This document shows positions 28,771 to 41,782 of a stretch of DNA of 64,000 nt, piece after piece. The DNA is from Escherichia coli (GTDB taxonomy: Bacteria; Pseudomonadota; Gammaproteobacteria; Enterobacterales; Enterobacteriaceae). Location: assembly GCF_016026235.1 (NCBI RefSeq), contig NZ_CP065613.1. One strand, given 5' to 3'. Within the stretch, counting starts at the first letter, position 1, and every line of letters begins with the position of its first letter. The position numbers and the translations under genes were made by a program. Below the pieces are notes generated by a model that was not told the DNA's origin, did not search any database, and was given only the letters and a program-made list of their open reading frames with translations.

Positions 28771-29913
28771 TTAAATTTGCTTTTCATACAATCGGTAACG
28801 CTTGTACGGCTCCGCCCCAATGCGTTCCAGCATGTTATTCATGCCTGTATTGGTTTCGAGGATCCATGACATCTCCAGCGCATCGATCTTCCGGCGGGCA
28901 AACGGATCGCGTAAGGCTTCAATCAATAACAGCGCAATCACCGGGCCGATGCGGCTGAACTGATACTCGTCGCGCACGCCCATCAGCGGTACTCGCGCAG
29001 TTCGCACACCGCTGACTTTCAAACGCCACAGCAATTTTGCCCAGCCGAAGGGAAAGAGCGATCCGTTCAGATCGGCAATCGCCTCGTTGATGTTCGGCAA
29101 GCCGACAATAAACGCGCAGGGTGCAGAATCAATCTCAGCGATATAGATCATATCGTCCGGCACCAGATATTTAAGTTGATCGCCCATGGTCGCGAATTCA
29201 TGTTCGGTAAACGGCACAAATCCCCAGTTGTGCTGCCAGCCAGAGTTGAAAATCTCACGCAGGATCTGCATTTCTTCGGCAAACCGCTGACGATTGATGC
29301 AGCGAATGGTCACCTTTTTGCGCACCTGATCCATCAGTTTTTTTAGCGCCGGAGAGAAAGTGAGATCGGTTCGCTGCATCCACCACGCCAGTAAATCAAT
29401 GCCTTTGTGATAACCCAGTTGTTCAATATGCGCGGCATACCACGGTTTGCCGTGTGGCATCATCGCACAGGGTGGTGTGTCAAAACCTTCAATCAGTAAT
29501 CCGCTTTCCTGATTGATATTCAGGCTGAAAGGACCGCTGATCTTACTTGCACCTTGTGACTTCAACCACGCTTCCGCTGCGCCAAACAACGCGGCAAAAA
29601 CCTGCGGATCATCAATGGCGTCAATCATGCCGAAATGACCGGTATCTTCACCGTAACGCTCACGGTGCAAGGTATCTATTTGCGCGGTAATACGCCCAAC
29701 TATCTGCCCCGCTTTTTTTGCCACCCACGCCTGCCAGATGATATGGTCCGTCCCCGGATTTTTCGCAGACAAATGCTCGTTGCGTTCAATGAATAAAGGG
29801 GGTATCCAGTTTGGATCGTCGGGATAAAGTAATGACGGAAAAGCGATAAATGCCTTAAGGTCATTTTTATTAATTACTTTTTCAATTTTAATCATCAGCA
29901 GATCGCATTCCAT
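28771..29913 (-). CDS. yghO: YghO-family protein, putative GNAT-like N-acyltransferase
   Basis: 380-aa ORF convergent with glcC and divergent from the FAAL operon; the acyltransferase assignment is inferred, not motif-proven. Confidence 0.55.
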   Translation of the reverse strand: MECDLLMIKIEKVINKNDLKAFIAFPSLLYPDDPNWIPPLFIERNEHLSAKNPGTDHIIWQAWVAKKAGQIVGRITAQIDTLHRERYGEDTGHFGMIDAIDDPQVFAALFGAAEAWLKSQGASKISGPFSLNINQESGLLIEGFDTPPCAMMPHGKPWYAAHIEQLGYHKGIDLLAWWMQRTDLTFSPALKKLMDQVRKKVTIRCINRQRFAEEMQILREIFNSGWQHNWGFVPFTEHEFATMGDQLKYLVPDDMIYIAEIDSAPCAFIVGLPNINEAIADLNGSLFPFGWAKLLWRLKVSGVRTARVPLMGVRDEYQFSRIGPVIALLLIEALRDPFARRKIDALEMSWILETNTGMNNMLERIGAEPYKRYRLYEKQI

Positions 29914-30283
29914 AGTTCTGTGGGTAACAAATAATTAACGGTGACAAACAGGTTGCAACAGCAACGAATGGCACCTTAATAATCAACCCAATGAATACAA
30001 ACGACGAATAAATAGTATTTATTAATGATTACGATAAGGTCAAAGACTACACAGAAGCGCCACAATGCCTTTTGTCGATTTAAGGCGACCGGACAAGGCT
30101 TCTTCTTAATATATTCATAAATTAAATATCATTCACAATAAAAACAAAAAACTTAAACTCATTATTTAAATCAATGTTCATTTTCACACCGATGAAAATA
30201 CTATCTCATTTATCTTTTATGCCTATATAATCCACCGCATTATTGTCATTTTATTTTTGATATCCAATTTTTTCGTGGTGTAT
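29914..30283. promoter_or_regulatory. AT-rich divergent promoter region between yghO and the FAAL operon
   Basis: About 370 bp of very AT-rich DNA with A/T tracts between two divergent genes. Confidence 0.35.
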
Positions 30284-32005
30284 ATGTCTAATAAAATCTT
30301 TACGCATTCCCTACCTATGCGCTATGCCGATTTTCCAACGCTGGTTGATGCTTTGGACTACGCCGCTCTGAGTAGCGCCGGAATGAATTTTTATGACAGA
30401 CGTTGCCAACTTGAAGATCAACTGGAATATCAGACGTTAAAAACGCGTGCCGAAGCTGGTGCGAAGCGGTTGTTATCGCTGAACCTGAAAAAAGGCGAAC
30501 GCGTGGCGCTGATTGCCGAAACGAGTAGCGGGTTCGTAGAGGCTTTTTTTGCCTGTCAGTATGCTGGCTTAGTCGCCGTCCCGTTGGCGATTCCAATGGG
30601 CGTCGGTCAGCGGGATTCCTGGAGCGCCAAACTCCAGGGTTTACTGGCAAGTTGCCAGCCCGCAGCCATTATCACTGGTGATGAGTGGTTGCCACTGGTC
30701 AATGCCGCGACGCATAACAACCCCGAATTACATGTTTTAAGCCACGCCTGGTTTAAGGCATTACCGGAAGCCGATGTTGCGCTCCAGCGTCCAGTTCCGA
30801 ACGATATCGCCTACCTCCAGTACACCTCCGGCAGCACCCGTTTTCCCCGTGGCGTCATTATCACCCATCGCGAAGTGATGGCTAATCTACGTGCTATAAG
30901 CCACGATGGCATTAAATTACGCCCTGGCGACCGCTGCGTCTCCTGGCTGCCTTTCTACCATGATATGGGACTGGTCGGCTTTCTCCTGACCCCCGTCGCC
31001 ACGCAACTTTCAGTAGATTATTTGCGCACTCAGGATTTTGCCATGCGTCCTTTGCAATGGCTTAAATTGATCAGTAAAAATCGCGGCACCATTTCCGTTG
31101 CGCCGCCGTTTGGCTATGAATTGTGCCAGCGCCGCGTGAATGAAAAAGATCTCGCTGAACTGGATCTTTCCTGCTGGCGCGTCGCTGGTATTGGTGCAGA
31201 ACCCATCTCCGCAGAACAACTCCATCAATTCGCTGAATGTTTCCGTCAGGTTAACTTTGACAATAAAACTTTCATGCCGTGCTACGGACTGGCAGAAAAT
31301 GCGCTGGCTGTCAGCTTCTCTGATGAAGCCTCCGGGGTTGTGGTTAACGAAGTGGATCGCGACATCCTCGAATATCAGGGTAAAGCCGTCGCGCCGGGTG
31401 CAGAGACACGCGCCGTATCGACTTTCGTCAACTGCGGCAAAGCGTTGCCGGAACATGGTATTGAAATCCGCAATGAAGCAGGTATGCCGGTCGCGGAACG
31501 TGTGGTAGGCCATATTTGCATCTCCGGTCCCAGTCTGATGAGCGGTTACTTTGGCGACCAGGCTTCGCAAGACGAGATTGCCGCGACGGGCTGGTTAGAC
31601 ACCGGCGACCTCGGTTATCTGCTGGACGGTTATCTGTATGTCACCGGACGCATTAAAGATCTGATTATTATTCGTGGCCGTAATATCTGGCCGCAGGATA
31701 TTGAATATATTGCGGAACAGGAACCGGAAATTCATTCTGGCGATGCGATTGCTTTTGTTACCGCCCAGGAAAAAATCATTTTGCAGATCCAGTGTCGGAT
31801 CAGCGATGAAGAACGTCGCGGACAGCTTATCCACGCGCTGGCAGCACGGATCCAAAGCGAATTTGGCGTAACAGCGGCTATCGATCTGTTGCCGCCCCAC
31901 AGCATTCCCCGAACGTCCTCCGGCAAGCCTGCCCGTGCGGAAGCGAAAAAACGTTATCAGAAGGCTTATGCTGCAAGCCTTCATGTGCAGGAATCCCTGG
32001 CATGA
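30284..32005 (+). CDS. fatty-acyl-AMP ligase / acyl-ACP synthetase-like adenylating enzyme
   Basis: Adenylation motifs YLQYTSGSTRFPRGV and GWLDTGDLGYL; about 573 aa from the internal ATG (track ORF starts at TTG 30257). Confidence 0.75.
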   Translation: MSNKIFTHSLPMRYADFPTLVDALDYAALSSAGMNFYDRRCQLEDQLEYQTLKTRAEAGAKRLLSLNLKKGERVALIAETSSGFVEAFFACQYAGLVAVPLAIPMGVGQRDSWSAKLQGLLASCQPAAIITGDEWLPLVNAATHNNPELHVLSHAWFKALPEADVALQRPVPNDIAYLQYTSGSTRFPRGVIITHREVMANLRAISHDGIKLRPGDRCVSWLPFYHDMGLVGFLLTPVATQLSVDYLRTQDFAMRPLQWLKLISKNRGTISVAPPFGYELCQRRVNEKDLAELDLSCWRVAGIGAEPISAEQLHQFAECFRQVNFDNKTFMPCYGLAENALAVSFSDEASGVVVNEVDRDILEYQGKAVAPGAETRAVSTFVNCGKALPEHGIEIRNEAGMPVAERVVGHICISGPSLMSGYFGDQASQDEIAATGWLDTGDLGYLLDGYLYVTGRIKDLIIIRGRNIWPQDIEYIAEQEPEIHSGDAIAFVTAQEKIILQIQCRISDEERRGQLIHALAARIQSEFGVTAAIDLLPPHSIPRTSSGKPARAEAKKRYQKAYAASLHVQESLA

Positions 32006-32916
32006 ATCAAACTGTCGCGGTGACGGGCGCTACCGGTTTTATCGGTAAATATATTATCGATAACCTGCTCGCCCGCGGCTTTCACGTTCGCGCATTGACG
32101 CGTACTGCCCGCGCTCACGTCAATGACAATCTCACCTGGGTGCGCGGTTCGCTGGAAGATACTCATTCACTTAGCGAACTGGTTGCCGGAGCCAGTGCGG
32201 TGGTCCATTGCGCTGGGCAAGTGCGCGGACACAAAGAAGAGATTTTTACCCACTGTAACGTTGACGGCAGCCTGCACCTGATGCAAGCGGCAAAAGAGAG
32301 CGGCTTTTGCCAACGTTTTCTGTTTATCTCTTCGCTGGCGGCGCGCCATCCCGAGCTCTCCTGGTACGCAAATTCCAAACACGTCGCCGAACAACGGCTG
32401 ACTGCAATGGCTGACGAAATTACGCTGGGCGTTTTTCGCCCGACAGCCGTGTATGGTCCCGGCGATAAAGAGTTAAAACCGCTGTTTGACTGGATGCTGC
32501 GCGGCCTGCTGCCACGACTTGGTGCACCAGATACACAGCTCTCTTTCCTGCACGTCACCGATTTTGCGCAAGCAGTGGGTCAGTGGTTAAGCGCCGAAAC
32601 TGTACAGACGCAAACCTATGAATTATGCGATGGCGTCGCTGGCGGCTATGACTGGCAACGCATACAGCAACTTGCCGCCAACGTCCGTTGCGGTTCCGTG
32701 CGAATGGTTGGTATTCCTCTGCCGGTACTCACCTGCCTTGCGGATATCAGTACCGCGTTGAGTCGCCTGGCAGGTAAAGAACCTATGCTGACCCGCTCGA
32801 AAATTCGTGAATTAACCCACGCCGACTGGTCGGCAAGTAATAACCGTATTTCTGAAGATATTAATTGGTTTCCCGGGATTAGCCTGGAACACGCATTACG
32901 CAACGGGCTATTTTGA
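32002..32916 (+). CDS. NAD(P)-dependent epimerase/dehydratase-family (extended SDR) reductase
   Basis: N-terminal Rossmann motif VAVTGATGFIGKYI; start overlaps the upstream stop by 4 nt. Confidence 0.7.
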   Translation: MNQTVAVTGATGFIGKYIIDNLLARGFHVRALTRTARAHVNDNLTWVRGSLEDTHSLSELVAGASAVVHCAGQVRGHKEEIFTHCNVDGSLHLMQAAKESGFCQRFLFISSLAARHPELSWYANSKHVAEQRLTAMADEITLGVFRPTAVYGPGDKELKPLFDWMLRGLLPRLGAPDTQLSFLHVTDFAQAVGQWLSAETVQTQTYELCDGVAGGYDWQRIQQLAANVRCGSVRMVGIPLPVLTCLADISTALSRLAGKEPMLTRSKIRELTHADWSASNNRISEDINWFPGISLEHALRNGLF

Positions 32917-32947
32917 TTGTCTTGTTTAAAGGTGTGTTAACGTTTCT

Positions 32948-33196
32948 ATGGTAAATCGTGAAATAGTAATGGATTACATCCTTTCCTGTTTACAGGATTT
33001 GGTCGAAAACGGTGTGGAAATTAAGCCCGACAGCGATCTCGTCAACGATCTTGGCCTGGAGTCGATCAAAGTGATGGATCTCTTAATGATGCTGGAAGAC
33101 AGATTCGATATTTCCATTCCTATTAATATTCTGCTGGATGTCAAAACCCCTGCGCAATTAATGGAAACTCTACTTCCATGGCTGGAGAATAAATAA
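32948..33196 (+). CDS. acyl carrier protein
   Basis: 82 aa with the phosphopantetheine-attachment signature DLGLESIKVMDL. Confidence 0.7.
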   Translation: MVNREIVMDYILSCLQDLVENGVEIKPDSDLVNDLGLESIKVMDLLMMLEDRFDISIPINILLDVKTPAQLMETLLPWLENK

Positions 33197-34368
33197 TGGG
33201 GCTATACGATAAATATGCGCGCCTTGCTGGCGAGCGACTGCAATTTAGTGACAACGGGTTAACACCGTTTGGCACCTGTATTGATGAAGTGTATTCCGCC
33301 ACCGAAGGCCGGATCGGCAATAAAAAAGTGATTCTGGCCGGGACCAATAATTATCTCGGTTTAACCTTTAATCATGATGCCATCAGCGAAGGTCAGGCAG
33401 CGTTAGCGGCCCAAGGCACCGGCACCACCGGTTCTCGTATGGCAAACGGCAGTTATGCGCCGCACCTGGCGTTAGAGAAAGAGATTGCCGAGTTTTTCAA
33501 TCGCCCTACCGCTATCGTTTTTTCAACCGGTTATACCGCTAATTTAGGCGTCATCAGCGCACTTGCCGACCATAACGCCGTGGTGTTACTGGATGCCGAC
33601 AGCCACGCCAGTATTTATGACGCCTGTTCTCTCGGTGGCGCGGAAATTATTCGTTTCCGCCATAACGATGCTAAAGATCTGGAACGGCGCATGGTTCGCC
33701 TCGGTGAACGGGCGAAAGAGGCGATTATCATCGTTGAGGGCATCTACAGCATGCTCGGTGACGTTGCGCCGCTGGCGGAAATTGTTGATATCAAACGTCG
33801 TCTCGGTGGTTATTTGATTGTCGATGAAGCGCATTCGTTTGGCGTGTTAGGCGCAACAGGGCGCGGACTGGCTGAAGCTGTCGGCGTTGAAGATGATGTG
33901 GATATTATCGTTGGTACTTTCAGTAAAAGTCTGGCCTCGATTGGCGGTTTTGCTGTCGGTTCGGAAGCGATGGAAGTGCTGCGCTACGGCAGCCGCCCGT
34001 ATATTTTTACCGCCTCTCCTTCTCCGTCCTGCATTGCGACCGTGCGCTCGTCGTTAAGAACTATTGCCACACAACCAGAGCTGCGGCAAAAGCTGATGGA
34101 TAACGCCAACCATCTGTATGACGGTCTGCAAAAACTGGGTTATGAGTTAAGTTCACATATTAGCCCGGTAGTGCCAGTAATAATCGGTTCGAAAGAGGAA
34201 GGTTTACGCATCTGGCGCGAGCTTATCTCGCTGGGCGTGTATGTGAATCTTATCCTGCCGCCTGCCGCGCCTGCAGGCATCACGCTGCTGCGCTGTAGCG
34301 TAAATGCTGCCCACAGTCGTGAGCAAATCGATGCCATCATTCAGGCATTTGCTACTCTGAAGCAGTAA
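33196..34368 (+). CDS. PLP-dependent alpha-oxoamine synthase (BioF/Kbl/serine palmitoyltransferase family)
   Basis: 390 aa with the conserved PLP-lysine context GTFSKSLASIGGF and a DEAHSFG motif; start overlaps the ACP stop by 1 nt. Confidence 0.75.
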   Translation: MGLYDKYARLAGERLQFSDNGLTPFGTCIDEVYSATEGRIGNKKVILAGTNNYLGLTFNHDAISEGQAALAAQGTGTTGSRMANGSYAPHLALEKEIAEFFNRPTAIVFSTGYTANLGVISALADHNAVVLLDADSHASIYDACSLGGAEIIRFRHNDAKDLERRMVRLGERAKEAIIIVEGIYSMLGDVAPLAEIVDIKRRLGGYLIVDEAHSFGVLGATGRGLAEAVGVEDDVDIIVGTFSKSLASIGGFAVGSEAMEVLRYGSRPYIFTASPSPSCIATVRSSLRTIATQPELRQKLMDNANHLYDGLQKLGYELSSHISPVVPVIIGSKEEGLRIWRELISLGVYVNLILPPAAPAGITLLRCSVNAAHSREQIDAIIQAFATLKQ

Positions 34369-34373
34369 TGTGA

Positions 34374-34406
34374 GCCCGCCGTGGTGTTTGCGCCACGGCG
34401 GGTTTA
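34374..34406. terminator. bidirectional terminator hairpin between convergent operons
   Basis: cccgccgtggtg / tttg / cgccacggcggg perfect stem followed by ttt, between the AOS stop and the convergent permease gene. Confidence 0.55.
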
Positions 34407-35483
34407 ATGTTGTCTGTCATACCAATACACCAGGCTCAACGCCACCAACACAAACGCTACCGGTAAACCGAGCGCGGTAACAGGTGCGCTTAACGCAAAT
34501 AGCAATCCCAGATTAACCATGATTTGATAGCTGATCCAGGTGAGTAAGCCCACGATGACGCCTACAGCGAGACGGCTACCCATCCCAGGCGAACGCGGGG
34601 CAGTAAAGGTAAACGGCACAGCCAGCAAAATCATCGCCAGGGTCAGGATGGGTTGCCCCAGTTTTTCCCACAGTGCAAGGCGGTATTCGCTGCTGGGTTG
34701 CCCGGTTTCCTGCAAATAATGGATGTAATGATTAAGCTGACGGACAGAAAAAGTATTCCCCGGCATTGATAACTCTTCAAGATTCATACTGGTGAAGGCC
34801 GATTGCCAGGCAAGATTATCTAATGTTTCCAGCGTTTCTTTGCCATTCAGCCATTTTTTATGATTCACACCATGCAGGACCCACGTTTTGTCGTCTTTAA
34901 TGGTGGCACTGCGTGCATAAATGTAGGATTCAAGCGAGAGATCGTCGGGATAATGAAATATCTCCACGCCCACCGGCTGGCCCTGCTCGTTCAGCGATTT
35001 CACCGTCACAAATTCATTACCACGCCTGGCCCACAGCATATTGCCGGTAATGTCATCGTCCTCCCCCAACGCGGTGGCGGTCGATTTGATTTGCAGCGCC
35101 TGTTGCTGCAATGGCGACGCCACCCACTCATCTATCGCGCCTAACGAAACAGTCCACAATATCCCGGCAACCAGCGCCACCAGTGCAATACGGAAGATAG
35201 AAAACCCCGTGCTGCGAATGGCGGTAAGCTCACTGTTTTTCGATAACTGCCCCAGGCCAACAATCCCTCCCAATAAGGCGATAAACGGCGAAAGTTCGAC
35301 CAGTGTGCGCGGTAAGGTCATTAGCACCACCAGCACCGCCTGAGTCCAGCGATAACCGCCCGGGCTGACATCATCCAGTTCGTTAATCAGGTTGAAGGTG
35401 GTAAAAAGCGGCAGCAATAGCCCTGCGGCGGCGGCAAAACCGAGAAAGAGATGACGGATTAAATAGCGACTGAAAACATTCAT
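34404..35483 (-). CDS. LptG-like permease (YjgP/YjgQ family), paralog
   Basis: Start at MNVFSRYLIRHLF gives a 4-nt ATGA overlap with the upstream gene; six predicted TM segments around a large periplasmic loop. Confidence 0.6.
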   Translation of the reverse strand: MNVFSRYLIRHLFLGFAAAAGLLLPLFTTFNLINELDDVSPGGYRWTQAVLVVLMTLPRTLVELSPFIALLGGIVGLGQLSKNSELTAIRSTGFSIFRIALVALVAGILWTVSLGAIDEWVASPLQQQALQIKSTATALGEDDDITGNMLWARRGNEFVTVKSLNEQGQPVGVEIFHYPDDLSLESYIYARSATIKDDKTWVLHGVNHKKWLNGKETLETLDNLAWQSAFTSMNLEELSMPGNTFSVRQLNHYIHYLQETGQPSSEYRLALWEKLGQPILTLAMILLAVPFTFTAPRSPGMGSRLAVGVIVGLLTWISYQIMVNLGLLFALSAPVTALGLPVAFVLVALSLVYWYDRQH

Positions 35484-36550
35484 CGGGAAAATTTCTGCAG
35501 CAAAGAGAAGTCGCGTGCGACCAGCATCAGCAGGCCCATTAGCATGAGTCCGGGTACTAACCACAAACCAGGAATGAGGGGAATCGCGCCGTTAGCCACC
35601 AGCGTACGGCAGACGTCGCCGCCATAAAAAATGGCAATAAACAGCAACGTCAGTGGCAATAATGTTGAAAATCGCCCTTGCCGCGGTTTTACCCGACTTA
35701 ATGAAATGGCCAGCAGCGCCATCAACAATGCTGTCAGGCCACGGCTTTGCCGCCATTGCAGTTCGGCATGATCGGCAGGAAATACAGAGCGTGCCAGCTC
35801 CGTGACCGATTTTGCTTTGCGTTTGACGTTAGGGCTTTGATCCAGCGGATTCAGATGTAATTGCAGATTACGGTAGATCTGTTCATTGTCGTCACGCCCC
35901 TGATGATCGAGAAGATAGGCAGTGCCGTTGTGCAACATAACGGTCGGTTTCTCGGGTGATGGGTCAACCACATCAACCGAACGGGCGCGGAAAATGCGGG
36001 TTCGATTGGCAGTAGAAGTATAAATCAGCGCGTCAGTCAGGCGATTATTATCCTGATCAACCGTCTGCGAAAGGATCATTCGTCCGTTATCGTTAGTGTT
36101 AAATTTCTTTGCCCGCAACTGGCGAACATCCAGCTCCGACTGCGACTGCTGCTCCAGTTGATAAATCTGCGCATAAGCCCACGGACGACCATACATCGAC
36201 AGAAGGGTGACAAAAATACTTAGCGGTATCGCCAGATAAAGAACGGCTTTGTACAAGCGTCCCGGACTGCCCCCCGCCGCAGAGATAGCGGTAATTTCCG
36301 AGTCGGTATACATCTGCCCTAGCGTCACGCCAACTGACACATACAGACCAACAGGTAACAACATCTCCAGTGCAATCAGCACTTTGTAGAAAACGATATC
36401 CAGCACAACATCAAGAGCTAATGTCCCATTTGCCGCTTCGGTCAGATAACGCTGTGCGGAGTAGCTGGCGAAAATAAAGATCAGAAAACCGACGATAATC
36501 AGCACCAGACGGCGCGTACCACGCATGATGTAGTGTTCAACCAGCTTCAT
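35480..36550 (-). CDS. LptF-like permease (YjgP/YjgQ family), paralog
   Basis: 356 aa with the same architecture as the neighbour; TM1-loop region GQMYTDSEITAISAAG resembles recalled LptF (YTESEITVMHACG). Confidence 0.6.
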   Translation of the reverse strand: MKLVEHYIMRGTRRLVLIIVGFLIFIFASYSAQRYLTEAANGTLALDVVLDIVFYKVLIALEMLLPVGLYVSVGVTLGQMYTDSEITAISAAGGSPGRLYKAVLYLAIPLSIFVTLLSMYGRPWAYAQIYQLEQQSQSELDVRQLRAKKFNTNDNGRMILSQTVDQDNNRLTDALIYTSTANRTRIFRARSVDVVDPSPEKPTVMLHNGTAYLLDHQGRDDNEQIYRNLQLHLNPLDQSPNVKRKAKSVTELARSVFPADHAELQWRQSRGLTALLMALLAISLSRVKPRQGRFSTLLPLTLLFIAIFYGGDVCRTLVANGAIPLIPGLWLVPGLMLMGLLMLVARDFSLLQKFSR

Positions 36551-36580
36551 CTCACTAACGCCCTCAATCCTTTGAATTTT

Positions 36581-37144
36581 TTATTCATTGATCAGTTTCT
36601 GCGCCAGCGCAATGACATGATCTACCTCTTCCGGCGTCAGGCTGCCGTCCTTTGCCCACTGAATTTGCCCGGTTTTATTCAGCACCAGAATGGTTGAACT
36701 CTGCTCCGGCAAGCGCCAGGCAACGCGTCCCTGTCCATTGCCGTCAATAACGAATTGCGCCCACGGATAGCGGCGTTTATTTTTTTCGATTTTGCCAACG
36801 ACAAAATAGCCAGTACCAAAGATGGCATCATCAGTGTTCACAATGGTGGTGGGCTGAAAACGATCCTGTGGAAAGTTTGCCGCTTCAACCGCTTTAATTA
36901 ACAGTGAGTTCTTCTTCTTCGCTGACTTACGCCCGGCGATATACTGGATAATGCGGACTTTTCCCGCCAATTGTGTGCTGTTCCACTTTTGGTAGTGAAT
37001 TTCGTCGTCGCTATTCAGAAGCAGCTCGCCGCCTTCCTGAATATAAACAGGGGTAACCGTTTTGCCAGTGACGAAATTGTGTGCCTGCACACCCGGGGCT
37101 AAGAGCATGATAATCAGCGCAATAATCAAACGAGATGACATCAT
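36581..37144 (-). CDS. periplasmic protein with signal peptide (YtfJ-like)
   Basis: Signal peptide MMSSRLIIALIIMLLAPGVQA; resemblance to YtfJ is from memory only. Confidence 0.45.
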   Translation of the reverse strand: MMSSRLIIALIIMLLAPGVQAHNFVTGKTVTPVYIQEGGELLLNSDDEIHYQKWNSTQLAGKVRIIQYIAGRKSAKKKNSLLIKAVEAANFPQDRFQPTTIVNTDDAIFGTGYFVVGKIEKNKRRYPWAQFVIDGNGQGRVAWRLPEQSSTILVLNKTGQIQWAKDGSLTPEEVDHVIALAQKLINE

Positions 37145-37152
37145 TGCTCCGG

Positions 37153-37977
37153 TTATAGCGGAAAACGCGAAATCAGCAGCTCTAAGCGCTGGCGAATATC
37201 GCTATCCAGCGCCACCGGTGCATCATACGACTGGCGGTTTTCCATATCATCCGCCACCATGTCGTCGTGTTTATCCCCCATCAGGCCATTAATGGCGGCG
37301 AGGAAACGGGAAATCTGTAACGCCTCTTTATTTTCAGGATCAAGCGATCTTAAGGTGTCGTAATAAGAAACCTGCTGGCTGATGATTTTTCGCACATCAT
37401 GAAATTCCCTGCCGGTTAGTCGCGGTTTGGCAATTATCTCTTTCAGGGCATGCATTTGCTTTTGCCGATAGGCAATAAAACCGCTTACGCTTTCTAACTG
37501 GCTATGGCGTAATGAATAGTTCACCAACGACCAGACCGGAGAGCTTAAATAAATTCGTAACAGGTTGCCGTAATACGACACAATATTTTTCTTACCGTTA
37601 CGAAATCCGTCCTGAAAACGTCCCAGAAAAACGGTCGTTTTGCCGAATAAAAATCTGGCCTGATGCTTTTTTAAATACAGCCGTTGTGCAAAACGTAGAT
37701 GCTTGTAGCGCGCTCGCATGTATTTAAACTGTTTACGCTCGTCTGTCGTCAGCTCATCGCCTTTGGCTTGTTTGCGAATTAAACGAAGTAATTCCTGACG
37801 ATCAACGCCATTGAGCCAGAATTGCAGGCATAACGCGTAATTATCATGGATGATTTCGGTGGTACAACATAGTGCGATAGTCGGCGGCAAACTGACCTGG
37901 GCATCAACAACATCATCTTCCTCAATCGCAACAAATAGATGCTCGCTCGCCTCAAGCGGGAAATATTTTCTCATCAT
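37153..37977 (-). CDS. hypothetical cytoplasmic protein (274 aa)
   Basis: ORF whose start overlaps the flippase stop by 1 nt; no recognisable motif. Confidence 0.45.
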   Translation of the reverse strand: MMRKYFPLEASEHLFVAIEEDDVVDAQVSLPPTIALCCTTEIIHDNYALCLQFWLNGVDRQELLRLIRKQAKGDELTTDERKQFKYMRARYKHLRFAQRLYLKKHQARFLFGKTTVFLGRFQDGFRNGKKNIVSYYGNLLRIYLSSPVWSLVNYSLRHSQLESVSGFIAYRQKQMHALKEIIAKPRLTGREFHDVRKIISQQVSYYDTLRSLDPENKEALQISRFLAAINGLMGDKHDDMVADDMENRQSYDAPVALDSDIRQRLELLISRFPL

Positions 37978-39326
37978 CAGGATTTCTCTCCGGCTGCGTT
38001 ATAAAGCAAGGAATGGCGCTGAAAAAAAGCCTTTAAGATCGGAATTAGCGAAAGCACCACATCCAGACATTGACCGCCGAAATAAGCAAACGCTGCTCCC
38101 AGCACGCCAAACAGATGACAGAACATGAACAGCAATACGATGTAGCCGATTGAGGCGATGGTTTGCGCCACGAGAAAAGCGCGCTGTTTTCCCGCCATCA
38201 ATAGCAATGACTCCTGAGGGAAGCCCAGCATCGAGATCACAATTGCGCCCAGCATCACCTGAATCAGGTCATACGCTTCGAGATACTTAACGCCAAACAC
38301 CAGCGAAATGAGCGGCTTGCCGACGATCAACACCGCGAGCGCCACCAGAATACCGATTCCGCCCGCCAGTAAACCGGACTTCACACCTAACAACCACGGT
38401 CTGGTGGTGCGCGGATCTAAACGCATCACCTCTGGGTAAAAACTTTTACCCAGCAAACCCGCTGGCGTTCCGGCGGCGTCGAAGAATGTCATGGCGATTT
38501 TAAATAACCCGGCGACAGCGGGTCCTAACACGATCCCCACCAACACTGTGCTGCACGAGTTACGCGCCGACCAGATGGAGTGGGCAATGTTGGTTGACCA
38601 GACAAAACTCCACGCGCCTTTAATGTGTCGGGCAGACTCAAACAGATTCAATTTGAAGGCGTTATGGATATTTCTGCGGCGTAATTCGCGCGCGGCAAAC
38701 CACCAGTACATGGTGCCGCCAACCAGATTCGACACGTACCAGGCAATAACAAAACCCGCAAAACCAAAGTCAAAATACCAGGCTGCGACGCTCCCCGCTG
38801 CGCGCAGAAAAGGTTTCGTCGCCTGCTGTACAGCAATCAAATCAAAGCGATCTACCGCACGCAGAATGCCGGTCGGCGTGGAGGAAGCCATTGAAGGAAT
38901 GAGCGTGCAATACAGCGCTGCCAGCCAAAAGCTTTGGTCATCCAGACCTAATGAATGGGAAAGAAAAGGGAGTAAGGCAATGCCGCCGACAATCGCCACC
39001 GCGCCGCTGACGATATCCAGCGAGAAGGAAAATGAGACGACATTGCGAAATTGCTGCGGATTATTGTTGGTTAATGCTGGTGTTCCGTACTGAACCACCA
39101 GCTGCCATGTCTGAAACTTAATAAAATCGCTGATCGACTTGGCGTACGATTGCACAATCACCAGTACGCCAAACATGGCGGGCGTCATCCCTTTACCGGC
39201 ACACGAGAGCGCCAACAGACCCAGCAAGGCGCTCACGACATTACTGGAGCCTAACCAGGCGCTATTGCGAATAATGGTGCGAAACGCGCCATCTGCAAAC
39301 CAATGTTTGATGTTAAAACCCGCCAA
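37977..39326 (-). CDS. yghQ: MOP-superfamily (Wzx-like) polysaccharide/lipid flippase
   Basis: 449-aa protein with about 12 hydrophobic segments. Confidence 0.65.
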   Translation of the reverse strand: MAGFNIKHWFADGAFRTIIRNSAWLGSSNVVSALLGLLALSCAGKGMTPAMFGVLVIVQSYAKSISDFIKFQTWQLVVQYGTPALTNNNPQQFRNVVSFSFSLDIVSGAVAIVGGIALLPFLSHSLGLDDQSFWLAALYCTLIPSMASSTPTGILRAVDRFDLIAVQQATKPFLRAAGSVAAWYFDFGFAGFVIAWYVSNLVGGTMYWWFAARELRRRNIHNAFKLNLFESARHIKGAWSFVWSTNIAHSIWSARNSCSTVLVGIVLGPAVAGLFKIAMTFFDAAGTPAGLLGKSFYPEVMRLDPRTTRPWLLGVKSGLLAGGIGILVALAVLIVGKPLISLVFGVKYLEAYDLIQVMLGAIVISMLGFPQESLLLMAGKQRAFLVAQTIASIGYIVLLFMFCHLFGVLGAAFAYFGGQCLDVVLSLIPILKAFFQRHSLLYNAAGEKS

Positions 39327-39371: not shown

Positions 39372-40130
39372 TTAAGTTAAACTTCGGCGGTCAGAAACGA
39401 TGGCAACCAGAGAAACCGCCTTCTGTGCCTGTTCCAGCACTTCGCTGTAGGGCGCTCTGGAATCAATCTCAAGAATTTTTGTGCCGTTATAGCCAATCGT
39501 CGACATAACACTGATTTTGTCCTGCAGCTCGGCATAGTCATGGTCAGGCTTGCGGGAGATGGCAGTCTCAATATCAATGCCCAGGCGAATAATTAATTCC
39601 GGGCGATATTGCGCCATTTGTTGGTATAAACGCCGTTCGCGCTGCGCCAGAAACATGCTGATTTTCCCGGTCGCACGTTCGACGCCAATCCCCGGTCCGT
39701 CATAATAAAAGCCCGAAATTTCAGCCTGCGGGAAGCGATCGCTGACCACCAGAACGCCACTTTGCGCCAGTCGCTGAACCTTGCGTAGATTCGCCATTCT
39801 TCGCAGCGAGAAGCAGTACATAATCACCGCCGCCCATAGCGCCGGAGATTTGGTTTTCATGCTTTGGGTTTTCGAGGATTTGGCCGCCAGTCGCCGTTCC
39901 AGCCAGACGCCAACCAACGGCAATCGTTTGATTTTGTCGCCGTCTTCGCCGGAGAGCAGCCCCAAATAGCGGCGCTCGGTTTGCCAGTGTTGTTGCAGCG
40001 ATTTCACCAGGTCGGTGGTCAGTGTGGATTTACCGGTGCCATCACACCCGACCACCGCAATCAGCCCCGGAATGTAGTTGGGCTGCGGCGCGGTTGTACT
40101 AATAACAGTTTGTGTTTGTAGTGCATCCAT
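39372..40130 (-). CDS. yghR: P-loop NTPase, kinase-like
   Basis: Walker A VGCDGTGKST; shares DRFPQ and SRKPDH motifs with two neighbouring paralogs. Confidence 0.65.
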   Translation of the reverse strand: MDALQTQTVISTTAPQPNYIPGLIAVVGCDGTGKSTLTTDLVKSLQQHWQTERRYLGLLSGEDGDKIKRLPLVGVWLERRLAAKSSKTQSMKTKSPALWAAVIMYCFSLRRMANLRKVQRLAQSGVLVVSDRFPQAEISGFYYDGPGIGVERATGKISMFLAQRERRLYQQMAQYRPELIIRLGIDIETAISRKPDHDYAELQDKISVMSTIGYNGTKILEIDSRAPYSEVLEQAQKAVSLVAIVSDRRSLT

Positions 40131-40161
40131 TCGTTAAATCATCCCCTATCCATTTTGGTGA

Positions 40162-40875
40162 TCAAGAAAGCGCGGCGTGAATTGCGCGTAGTGACGCTTG
40201 CAGAATTTCATCGGCTGGTTGCCGACCATCCAGTTCAAGGATCTTTGCGCCATTGAATGTCAATTGCGGCGTAACGGCGATTTTTTCCTGTAACGCTGCC
40301 AGTTGGTGGTCAGGTTTACGCGCAAACGCGGTTTGTTCATCAATGCCAAGACGAATCAACAATACGGGTAAATAAGACGCCATCCATTGGTACAGCTTCA
40401 ACTCGCGCTGCCTTAACATTTTTATCCAACCGTTACCGCCCGTGGTTTTTGCCAATTGCGGGCCATCAAAGCGAAAACCCGGCACTTCAACCTGCGGGTA
40501 GCGGTCGGTGATGAGCAGATGGCCTTGCTGGCTTCTACACAACATTTTGCGAAACTTGTACGCCCGCCAGCAGGAAAGCAGATAGATAACCAGCGCAGTA
40601 ATATTGCCAGGCGGTGTTGAGGGCTTTTCGTGCACATGTGCCGCTTTACTTCGCAGATAACGCCCAAAAGGTGCGCCAATAACAGGGAGCTGTGAAATCC
40701 ATTCGCCAATTCGCCCGGACGATTGCCCGAGATAAATGCGTTCTGTTGGCATTCTTGCTGCCAGTTCATTTACCAGGCTTGCCGTGAGGGTCGATTTACC
40801 TGAACCATCACATCCTACAATGGCAATAACACGCACTGGCGTGGAATTAATTATTGACATATTACGTTGATTCAC
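40162..40875 (-). CDS. yghS: P-loop NTPase, kinase-like
   Basis: Walker A VGCDGSGKST, plus DRYPQ and ARKPDH motifs. Confidence 0.65.
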   Translation of the reverse strand: MNQRNMSIINSTPVRVIAIVGCDGSGKSTLTASLVNELAARMPTERIYLGQSSGRIGEWISQLPVIGAPFGRYLRSKAAHVHEKPSTPPGNITALVIYLLSCWRAYKFRKMLCRSQQGHLLITDRYPQVEVPGFRFDGPQLAKTTGGNGWIKMLRQRELKLYQWMASYLPVLLIRLGIDEQTAFARKPDHQLAALQEKIAVTPQLTFNGAKILELDGRQPADEILQASLRAIHAALS

Positions 40876-41048
40876 GAAAAACCCGGCAGTAAATAATGTA
40901 TTGAATATTACGTGGTCCGTGCTCAGAATATCCGTTCAACCTTATTGTGACAATGGTTAATTGTGACATTGACCTGAATTACGCTTTCATAAAAACATAT
41001 TAACCAAATAAATATTTTGGATGGATATTTAAATTTAAGGATATATTC

Positions 41049-41741
41049 ATGCAGTCAATAACACCTCCATTAATTGCCGTTATTGGTAGCGATGGTTCAG
41101 GCAAGTCAACGGTGTGTGAACATCTCATTACCGTTGTCGAAAAATATGGTGCTGCCGAAAGAGTTCATTTAGGAAAACAAGCCGGAAATGTCGGTCGTGC
41201 AGTGACAAAATTACCGTTGATGGGAAAATCCTTACATAAAACAATTGAACGAAATCAGGTGAAAACAGCAAAAAAATTGCCAGGACCAGTTCCGGCGCTG
41301 GTAATTACAGCGTTTGTCGCCCGTCGCTTACTGCGCTTTCGTCATATGCTTGCCTGTCGTCGTCGCGGGTTAATTGTTCTAACCGACCGTTATCCTCAGG
41401 ACCAAATTCCTGGCGCTTACGATGGTACGGTGTTCCCACCTAACGTTGAAGGTGGTCGTTTTGTCTCATGGCTGGCAAGCCAGGAACGTAAAGCGTTTCA
41501 CTGGATGGCGAGCCATAAGCCTGATCTGGTCATCAAACTCAATGTCGATCTAGACGTGGCCTGCGCGCGTAAGCCTGACCACAAAAGGGAATCGCTGGCA
41601 AGAAAGATAGCCATAACGCCACAGTTAACCTTTGGTGGTGCACAACTGGTTGATATCGACGCCAATCAGCCACTGGAACAGGTGTTAGTTGATGCAGAAA
41701 AAGCGATTACGGATTTTATGACCGCGCGTGGTTATCACTAG
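41049..41741 (+). CDS. yghT: P-loop NTPase, kinase-like
   Basis: Walker [10 protein letters not shown], plus DRYPQ and ARKPDH motifs; divergent from yghS. Confidence 0.65.
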
Positions 41742-41751
41742 CCAAAAATGG

Positions 41752-41782
41752 AAATGCCCGATCGCCAGGACCGGGCATTTTC
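41752..41782. terminator. bidirectional terminator hairpin between yghT and pitB
   Basis: aatgcccg / 11-nt loop / cgggcatttt between two convergent genes. Confidence 0.5.

Follow-up and report, generated by a model that had tools for sequence, protein, structure and literature searches.

Three genes of Escherichia coli, yghR, yghS and yghT, are long-standing 'y-genes' that have been studied almost only in K-12, where the pathway around them is deleted. We analysed them in a 64,000-nucleotide stretch of a non-K-12-like E. coli chromosome (RefSeq assembly GCF_016026235.1, contig NZ_CP065613.1), here called the window, in which the triad is part of a complete sphingolipid island. The literature searched contains no functional study of yghR, yghS or yghT, which appear there in lists and screens only. 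What is new here is a protein family within a known fold that is attached to a sphingolipid pathway. The three genes, with positions given in the window, are as follows.

39372 to 40130, minus strand: yghR, 252 amino acids (aa), predicted P-loop kinase paralog of the thymidylate kinase (TMK) fold, R orthogroup; identified from its open reading frame (ORF), the RefSeq name yghR and its motifs.
40162 to 40875, minus strand: yghS, 237 aa, GTG start, predicted P-loop kinase paralog with the TMK fold, S orthogroup; it opens the probable minus-strand operon.
41049 to 41741, plus strand: yghT, 230 aa, predicted TMK-fold P-loop kinase paralog, T orthogroup, divergent from the other two; identified from its ORF and motifs.

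According to the window ORFs, yghS and yghR lie on the same strand with a gap of 31 nt, and 173 nt of intergenic DNA separate yghS from the divergent yghT. This region is 99-100% identical to the annotated yghR, yghS and yghT of E. coli genomes. A previous sequence-only reading of the window had described three divergently arranged paralogous genes of 252, 237 and 230 aa, and both the exact agreement of the ORFs and the 33-42% identity of their products bear this out. Full-length identity is 42% between YghR and YghS and 33% between YghR and YghT, and the three-way alignment has 56 invariant columns, which include the Walker A motif G[CS]DG[TS]GKST as well as DR[FY]PQ and [AS]RKPDH, the shared motifs on which that reading had been built. 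The similarity in this alignment lies far beyond chance, and we regard YghR, YghS and YghT as three old paralogs.

A scan of one genome per species, annotated with the window proteins, gave 80 loci and 223 orthologs distributed over many proteobacterial orders. Across these orthologs all three groups show little or no variation in GxDGxGKST, DRxPQ and RKPDH, the opposite of the non-conservation that would have refuted the sequence-only reading. Residues that are 95-100% conserved in all three orthogroups (YghS numbering) comprise G21, D23, G24, G26, K27, S28, T29, G50, G54, P64 and G67 in the N-terminal part, R104, D124, R125, P127, Q128, D137, G138 and E158 further along, and R186, K187, P188, D189, H190 and K198 towards the C-terminus. 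Since the K/S/T of the P-loop, the DR pair and RK(PDH) are 97-100% conserved in each of the three orthogroups, YghR, YghS and YghT all look catalytically competent. The residues that are conserved in a group-specific manner are distributed differently, with 18 of 30 located at YghS 48-84, the equivalent of the acceptor (nucleoside monophosphate, NMP)-binding segment of TMK, and this clustering favours a divergence of the paralogs in acceptor specificity.

No curated family accommodates YghRST, as all NCBIfam and Pfam matches are sub-threshold. Scores against TIGR00041 are 32.4, 22.1 and 24.6 bits compared with a cut-off of 83.25, the best independent E-values (i-E) for PF02223 (Thymidylate_kin) are 0.05-0.08, and other Pfam matches are at the level of the P-loop only. 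A profile built from 144 family members nevertheless matches TMK chains in the PDB with E about 1e-7, through three collinear blocks (P-loop, DRY motif, beta4/LID segment); in these, 'vitDRYP' aligns with 'vvCDRYa' and 'kPdLvirLnvdletAlaRK' with 'kPDvvfyLnvppnyAqnR'. An AlphaFold model of YghS on the family alignment has a mean predicted local distance difference test score (pLDDT) of 82.6 and a predicted template modelling score (pTM) of 0.77, with low confidence confined to residues 50-90. The proteins thus have the P-loop GxxxxGK[ST], DR[YH] and basic post-beta4 LID of TMK together with its three-dimensional fold, while remaining below the curated TMK score threshold (TIGR00041/PF02223).

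Neither an [LIVMFY]SGG[QEK] ABC signature nor a classical hhhhD[ED] Walker B motif was found in a motif scan of the three proteins, in agreement with the earlier remark that they lack an ABC signature; they do not have the combination of LSGGQ, hhhhDE Walker B and ABC fold that defines an ABC transporter nucleotide-binding domain, and an ABC or transport ATPase is ruled out by the TMK fold and the motif set. The Pfam and NCBIfam scans gave no DAGK_cat match that would place YghRST in the CpgB/LCB5 family of ceramide kinases, and the NCBIfam scans gave no match to the LpxK model. A role in defence was also rejected, as PADLOC returned no defence-system match, only P-loop-level noise over ~30 residues with E 2e-4 or worse. 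We therefore consider YghRST to be P-loop phosphotransferases of the TMK/deoxynucleoside kinase (dNK) fold, a prediction drawn from motifs, profile and model, and they constitute a previously undescribed family inside this known fold. The sequence-only reading had suggested small-molecule or nucleotide kinases; the kinase fold is upheld by the collinear TMK alignment, and fold comparison placed the proteins with kinases of the TMK/dNK type rather than in a non-kinase P-loop family, whereas the nucleotide kinase option loses ground to the sub-threshold TMK scores and the sphingolipid context.

This context is provided by conserved physical linkage of YghRST to the proteobacterial sphingolipid cluster (spt, acpR, aasR, cerR and the gene for bacterial ceramide synthase, bCerS). 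Linkage was counted at a distance of 10 kb for loci with at least 6 kb of flanking sequence on both sides, which comprised 37 loci from Enterobacterales and 23 from other taxa. The full triad occurs together with spt, acpR, cerR and aasR in 37/37 of the Enterobacterales loci; among the 23 others the triad is found in 18, spt in 11, a flippase of the YghQ type in 16 and hyp274, which encodes a 274-aa conserved protein, in 13. YghRST thus belongs invariably to the proteobacterial sphingolipid gene cluster in its Enterobacterales form, and the initial guess that the genes serve a lipid or sphingolipid pathway is strongly backed by synteny (37/37 enteric and 11/23 other loci). In most loci T keeps its divergent place beside S-R, and the order T(-)S(+)R(+) is shared by Enterobacterales, Carnimonas, Xanthomonadales and several Betaproteobacteria; sphingomonads (L060, L077) and a myxobacterial metagenome-assembled genome (MAG; L073) have the three genes oriented differently. 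Relatives retrieved from AFDB with Foldseek are from Sphingobium, Novosphingobium, Zymomonas, Gluconobacter, Acetobacter, Commensalibacter and Azotobacter, all of them uncharacterised and automatically named 'thymidylate kinase' or 'ATP-binding protein'; several of these genera have been listed as carriers of sphingolipid genes (PMC9386255, PMC11324152).

In the window, the other features of the island are the following.

28771 to 29913, minus strand: yghO, N-acyltransferase taken to be the bacterial ceramide synthase (bCerS), ortholog of CC_1154; from annotation and PMC9386255.
30257 to 32005, plus strand: aasR, acyl-AcpR synthetase (fatty acyl-AMP ligase); from annotation and PMC9386255.
32002 to 32916, plus strand: cerR/epi, NAD-dependent reductase of the ceramide pathway; from annotation and PMC9386255.
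32948 to 33196, plus strand: acpR, specialised acyl carrier protein; from annotation and PMC9386255.
33196 to 34368, plus strand: spt, serine palmitoyltransferase; from annotation, with the BL21 ortholog ECD_02854 assayed in PMC9386255.
34371-34406: strong GC-rich 16-bp hairpin between the convergent spt and lptG2.
34404 to 35483, minus strand: lptG2 (lptG paralog), TIGR04408 at 305 bits; last gene of the probable minus-strand operon, RefSeq coordinates.
35480 to 36550, minus strand: lptF2 (lptF paralog), TIGR04407 at 318 bits.
36581 to 37144, minus strand: YtfJ-family periplasmic protein, TIGR01626 at 213 bits, above the cut-off.
37153 to 37977, minus strand: hyp274, 274-aa conserved protein matching no known fold; its start overlaps the yghQ stop.
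37977 to 39326, minus strand: yghQ, full-length at 449 aa, MOP-family flippase by a weak family match; 45 nt downstream of yghR.
40876 to 41048: yghS/yghT intergenic region, with a sigma-70-like site at 40953-40925 (minus strand) upstream of yghS, from a consensus scan and not above shuffle expectation.
41752 to 41780: 12-bp hairpin between the convergent yghT and pitB.

Outside the island lie the glc operon, before yghO, and pitB and gss, after yghT. The genes yghS, yghR, yghQ, hyp274, the ytfJ-like gene, lptF2 and lptG2 are on one strand with overlaps or gaps of at most 45 nt, and in the promoter and terminator scan the unit from yghS to lptG2 contained no strong internal terminator, the only notable hairpins being those at its ends (34371-34406 and 41752-41780). 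Because of this spacing and the location of the hairpins, yghS to lptG2 probably form a single operon, and the hairpin at 34371-34406 is probably a bidirectional terminator that divides the two operons of the island. The number of promoter-like sites in the scanned region was not above shuffle expectation. In K-12, a peak for FlhDC in a SELEX (systematic evolution of ligands by exponential enrichment) experiment has been reported between yghS and yghT (PMC9962212).

Padilla-Gómez et al. identified the five genes from yghO/ECD_02850 to spt/ECD_02854 of BL21 as orthologs of the Caulobacter ceramide-synthesis genes, equated yghO/ECD_02850 with CC_1154 and assayed the E. coli Spt, AcpR and AasR proteins (PMC9386255). 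K-12 MG1655 (L084, 3129043-3132408) has an IS5 element between yghO and a 5'-truncated yghQ of 355 aa compared with 449 aa in the window, and, set against window positions 28771-39326, is without aasR, cerR, acpR, spt, lptG2, lptF2, the ytfJ-like gene and hyp274. The middle of the island has thus been lost from K-12 through an IS5-associated deletion and, since everything from aasR to hyp274 is absent there, the standard laboratory strain has yghRST as orphans of their pathway. The triad is present to at least 80% in 4,604 of 5,426 complete E. coli genomes (~85%), and at least 80% of the aasR-spt block in 4,067 of the same 5,426 (~75%).

Among the partners of the kinases, yghQ co-occurs with the triad in 59 loci and hyp274 accompanies the kinases in 54, some of them with no spt nearby, while the YtfJ-family gene is restricted to Enterobacterales loci. 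Searches of hyp274 against Pfam, NCBIfam and PDB sequences gave no significant match, although a single member hit CHAD at i-E 0.089, and its assignment to CHAD or to any other known domain was rejected on this basis. Its invariant residues are D22, R60, R88, K92, R95, H105, Q122, D123, F192, H193, R196, N230, G231, G234, H237, D238 and Y251, and it is possibly the missing transferase or a phosphate-binding partner of the kinases. We also considered whether hyp274 is a split-off version of the N-terminal NTP_transf_5-like domain of the 500-aa relatives described below, and dismissed this at an hhalign probability of 0.5%. At one locus (L088, 8001-12745) the neighbours of a 509-aa T-R fusion are hyp274, a YghQ ortholog, rml genes and a gene of the histidine phosphatase family. 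As there is no spt within 8 kb of this module, the core module can exist apart from the ceramide genes.

Further partners emerged from unbiased clustering of all ORFs that flank triad loci. A gene for an OlsC/LpxO-like acyl 2-hydroxylase directly follows yghR in 25 loci, and PAP2 lipid-phosphate phosphatases are encoded nearby, LpxE-like in 14 loci and LpxF/PgpB-like in 7. A gene for an LmtA-like methyltransferase, which matches lipid A 1-phosphate O-methyltransferase with E 6e-34, is located between T and S in 5 loci; in non-enteric islands, L051 and L076 being examples, it is co-oriented with T, overlapping it by 1 nt in L076. The islands at L051 (5656-12150) and L076 (4956-11040), and likewise L055, L057 and L067, have the triad interleaved with LmtA-like, two PAP2 and OlsC/LpxO-like genes and a gene for a 169-aa periplasmic protein, with an RND pump and outer-membrane factor alongside. 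From gene content, this set resembles lipid-A-style remodelling genes that have become attached to a sphingolipid.

In 19 loci, 17 enteric and 2 other, E. coli not being among them, the cluster is accompanied by a small and divergent DgkA-like gene (for example L002 2194-2553 and L003 12359-12730; Pfam DAGK_prokar, with no NCBIfam match). E. coli DgkA phosphorylates ceramide in vitro and, by analogy, the small DgkA-like protein could supply ceramide 1-phosphate. A gene resembling that for 2-hydroxy-3-oxopropionate (tartronate semialdehyde) reductase adjoins the triad in L055, L059, L061, L065 and L066, all of them Lysobacterales or gammaproteobacterial MAG loci, and two T-type copies are present in L055, L059 and L061. 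The reductase-like neighbour is a possible hint of a glycerate-containing head group.

Natural gene fusions link the kinases to one another. In two genomes of Nitrotoga a single ORF encodes S and R; P0121, present on 5 contigs within an spt cluster, is likewise an S-R fusion, and there are T-R (P0122) and T-T (P0124) fusions as well. Where S and R are separate, the gap between them has a median of ~30 nt and the genes overlap in 8/70 pairs. The existence of S-R, T-R and T-T fusions favours physical or functional coupling of the kinases. A large set of more distant relatives of ~500 aa (P0163, P0169, P0176 and similar) combines an N-terminal NTP_transf_5-like domain with a kinase domain; in P0223 (978 aa) a MOP flippase precedes the NTP_transf_5-like and kinase domains, and in P0257 (669 aa) a GT4 glycosyltransferase takes the place of the NTP_transf_5-like domain.

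From annotation and a domain scan, counterparts of the Caulobacter head-group enzymes (CpgA-D type) are absent from the E. coli island, and therefore the three kinases and hyp274 are its only candidate head-group enzymes. The reading that we favour, to which we assign a probability of roughly 0.55, is that YghT, YghS and YghR are ATP-dependent kinases whose substrate is the head group of ceramide, and not nucleotides, and which work on the cytoplasmic side, with S and R working as a pair, T acting separately, and the product leaving by way of YghQ and LptF2/LptG2. In this scheme ceramide would be produced by Spt, AcpR, AasR, YghO and CerR on the inner face of the inner membrane, and the three soluble cytoplasmic kinases would then add phosphoryl groups to its head group, either each to another hydroxyl or one after the other to extend a phosphate ester, with S and R as the coupled pair and T as the separate activity. 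The MOP flippase YghQ would flip the anionic product, which LptF2/LptG2 would pass to the Lpt bridge toward the outer membrane. The scheme builds on the fold, the catalytic motifs, the paralogy, the conserved synteny, the natural fusions and the fact that the E. coli cluster encodes no further head-group enzyme; that the acceptor is the lipid, how many phosphates are added and where, and in which order the steps take place are the parts that we infer. Candidate acceptors are ceramide, a phospho-ceramide, a sphingoid base and a soluble precursor. A phosphorylated lipid product is in line with the LmtA-like, PAP2 and OlsC/LpxO-like genes that flank non-enteric triads. The fold handles either hydroxyl acceptors, as in dNKs, or phosphate monoester acceptors, as in TMK, which makes both multi-site and successive phosphorylation chemically plausible.

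An extension that we regard as doubtful is that the three kinases act as a cascade or multi-site set to give a multiply phosphorylated ceramide, bearing either a C1 ester of pyro- or triphosphate or single phosphates at more than one hydroxyl, and hence a lipid-A-like anionic sphingolipid. Such a product would have a dedicated flippase and LptF2/LptG2 export, PAP2 and LmtA-like enzymes of some taxa would trim or methylate the phosphates, and the head-group chemistry and the lipid-kinase family, found in most E. coli strains and many Proteobacteria, would both be previously undescribed.

Several observations weigh against phosphorylation of ceramide by the triad. TMK-fold enzymes usually act on soluble nucleotides, and no membrane-binding element was identified in YghRST. 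The family-specific segment at 50-90 of the YghS model is of low confidence (pLDDT 59-65). An AlphaFold model of T, S and R joined by linkers (T-linker-S-linker-R), based on a shallow alignment of 14 paired rows, has well-folded domains and a pTM of 0.39, and a fixed T-S-R heterotrimer is not supported by this prediction. Kinases with hyp274 and a YghQ-type flippase occur with no spt within 8-10 kb (L088, L059, L060, L077), and the distant fused relatives are encoded immediately behind the flippase gene of Wzx/Wzy exopolysaccharide clusters (L085 5721-12048), so that the ancestral acceptor may have been a lipid-linked or soluble sugar-type molecule and not a sphingolipid. The literature searched holds no report of a sphingolipid produced from the native cluster of E. 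coli. In addition, YghRST relatives are present in Zymomonas and Azotobacter, genera that Olea-Ozuna et al. credit with Cpg-type genes.

The main rival, which we rate as possible although well short of an even chance, is that the kinases phosphorylate a soluble head-group precursor, such as a glycerate-like hydroxy-acid, a sugar or a nucleotide-linked compound, that hyp274 or another protein subsequently transfers to ceramide. The nearest folds all act on soluble small molecules, the obligate neighbour hyp274 with its invariant His, Arg, Lys and Asp residues could be the transferase, and fusions to NTase-like and glycosyltransferase domains are known among distant relatives. In Caulobacter the head group is phosphoglycerate, for the supply of which its authors note a missing enzyme, and the glycerate-making reductase-like gene stands beside the triad in 5 loci, but these are just 5 of ~80. 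Moreover, the E. coli island lacks a cytidylyltransferase, a CDP-alcohol transferase and a glycosyltransferase, and the co-located LmtA-like and PAP2 genes encode enzymes of types that act on lipid-bound phosphates.

It is unlikely that YghRST are instead NTPases that energise or regulate flipping by YghQ or export by LptF2/LptG2, or regulatory ATP-binding subunits. Their constant adjacency to a MOP flippase, and the fusion to one in P0223, would fit such a role, as would a size close to that of ABC nucleotide-binding domains and the label of ABC ATPase component that relatives bear in some sources. However, MOP flippases are not ATP-driven, the fold is that of TMK and not ABC or RecA-like, with neither an ABC signature nor a Walker B motif, and the invariant DR and LID motifs are typical of phosphoryl transfer to an acceptor. 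In Caulobacter, furthermore, LptF2/LptG2, which are required for sphingolipid transport and export, use the housekeeping LptB (bioRxiv 10.64898/2026.04.12.717747).

Genuine (d)NMP or thymidylate kinases, as RefSeq names yghS and yghT, can be rejected as very improbable: the best sequence and fold matches are indeed TMKs, and the name given by the Prokaryotic Genome Annotation Pipeline (PGAP) is 'dTMP kinase', but TIGR00041 gives 22-32 bits against 83.25 and PF02223 an i-E of 0.05 or worse, a family-specific stretch takes the place of the TMP-binding region, the strict synteny is one with sphingolipid genes, none being seen with nucleotide metabolism genes, and three copies are kept together across orders. 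The PGAP name stands on the RefSeq records of yghS and yghT although the scores are ~1/3 of the model cut-off, and labels of the 'dTMP kinase' type also dominate the UniProt/AFDB entries of the family. This label is a propagating over-annotation.

If the triad makes the head group, as we favour, the structure of the E. coli sphingolipid becomes directly testable by genetics and lipidomics, YghRST would represent a new class of lipid kinase, and there would be a second route to anionic outer-membrane sphingolipids besides the phosphoglycerate route of Caulobacter. This would have consequences for the barrier function of the outer membrane, for the way in which hosts sense bacterial sphingolipids and for polymyxin susceptibility, which has been linked to sphingolipids in Caulobacter (PMC11324152).

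With regard to known systems, the closest functional analogy is with CpgB (CCNA_01218) of Caulobacter, the kinase of a sphingolipid cluster, which is a diacylglycerol-kinase/LCB5-type enzyme with a GGDG motif that turns ceramide into ceramide 1-phosphate in the first head-group step (PMC10331486). Its fold is unrelated to the P-loop TMK fold of YghRST, and homology was ruled out, as CpgB is DAGK-like and no P-loop kinase has been described in the 17-gene Caulobacter cluster. The Caulobacter head-group set consists of CpgB, a Tam41-like protein, a CDP-alcohol transferase, the cytidylyltransferase CpgD and a CofC-like nucleotidyltransferase; there, one kinase is followed by cytidylyl- and phosphoglycerate transferases, whereas in the E. 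coli-type cluster there are three kinases and such transferases are absent. The triad is not simply a replacement for CpgB. Mutual exclusion of YghRST and Cpg-type genes was considered and cannot be claimed, as Zymomonas and Azotobacter, which have YghRST relatives, are reported to have Cpg-type genes.

Within the fold, thymidylate kinase (Tmk) shares the P-loop, DRY and basic LID with YghRST, which score far below its cut-offs, have a family-specific acceptor-side segment (YghS ~50-90) and extra invariant LGxxxG, LPxxG, PQ after DR, DG and RKPDH motifs, and are found in the context of sphingolipid and envelope-lipid genes instead of nucleotide metabolism. There is no significant sequence match to deoxynucleoside kinases (2jas, 2ocp), in which ERS stands in place of DRxPQ. 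The fusions of NTP_transf_5-like and kinase domains have a C-terminal domain homologous to YghRST (E 1e-30 to 1e-46, closest to T) and, like YghRST, adjoin or are fused with MOP flippases; these uncharacterised proteins differ in their extra N-terminal nucleotidyltransferase-like domain and polysaccharide context. LpxK, the lipid A 4'-kinase, is a P-loop kinase that acts on a membrane lipid destined for the Lpt pathway, and differs from YghRST in belonging to another P-loop family with an architecture of its own. The likeness to the lipid A system extends to its modifying enzymes (LpxE/F, LpxT, LmtA, LpxO), since non-enteric YghRST islands carry LmtA-, LpxE/F- and LpxO/OlsC-like genes together with LptF/G paralogs.

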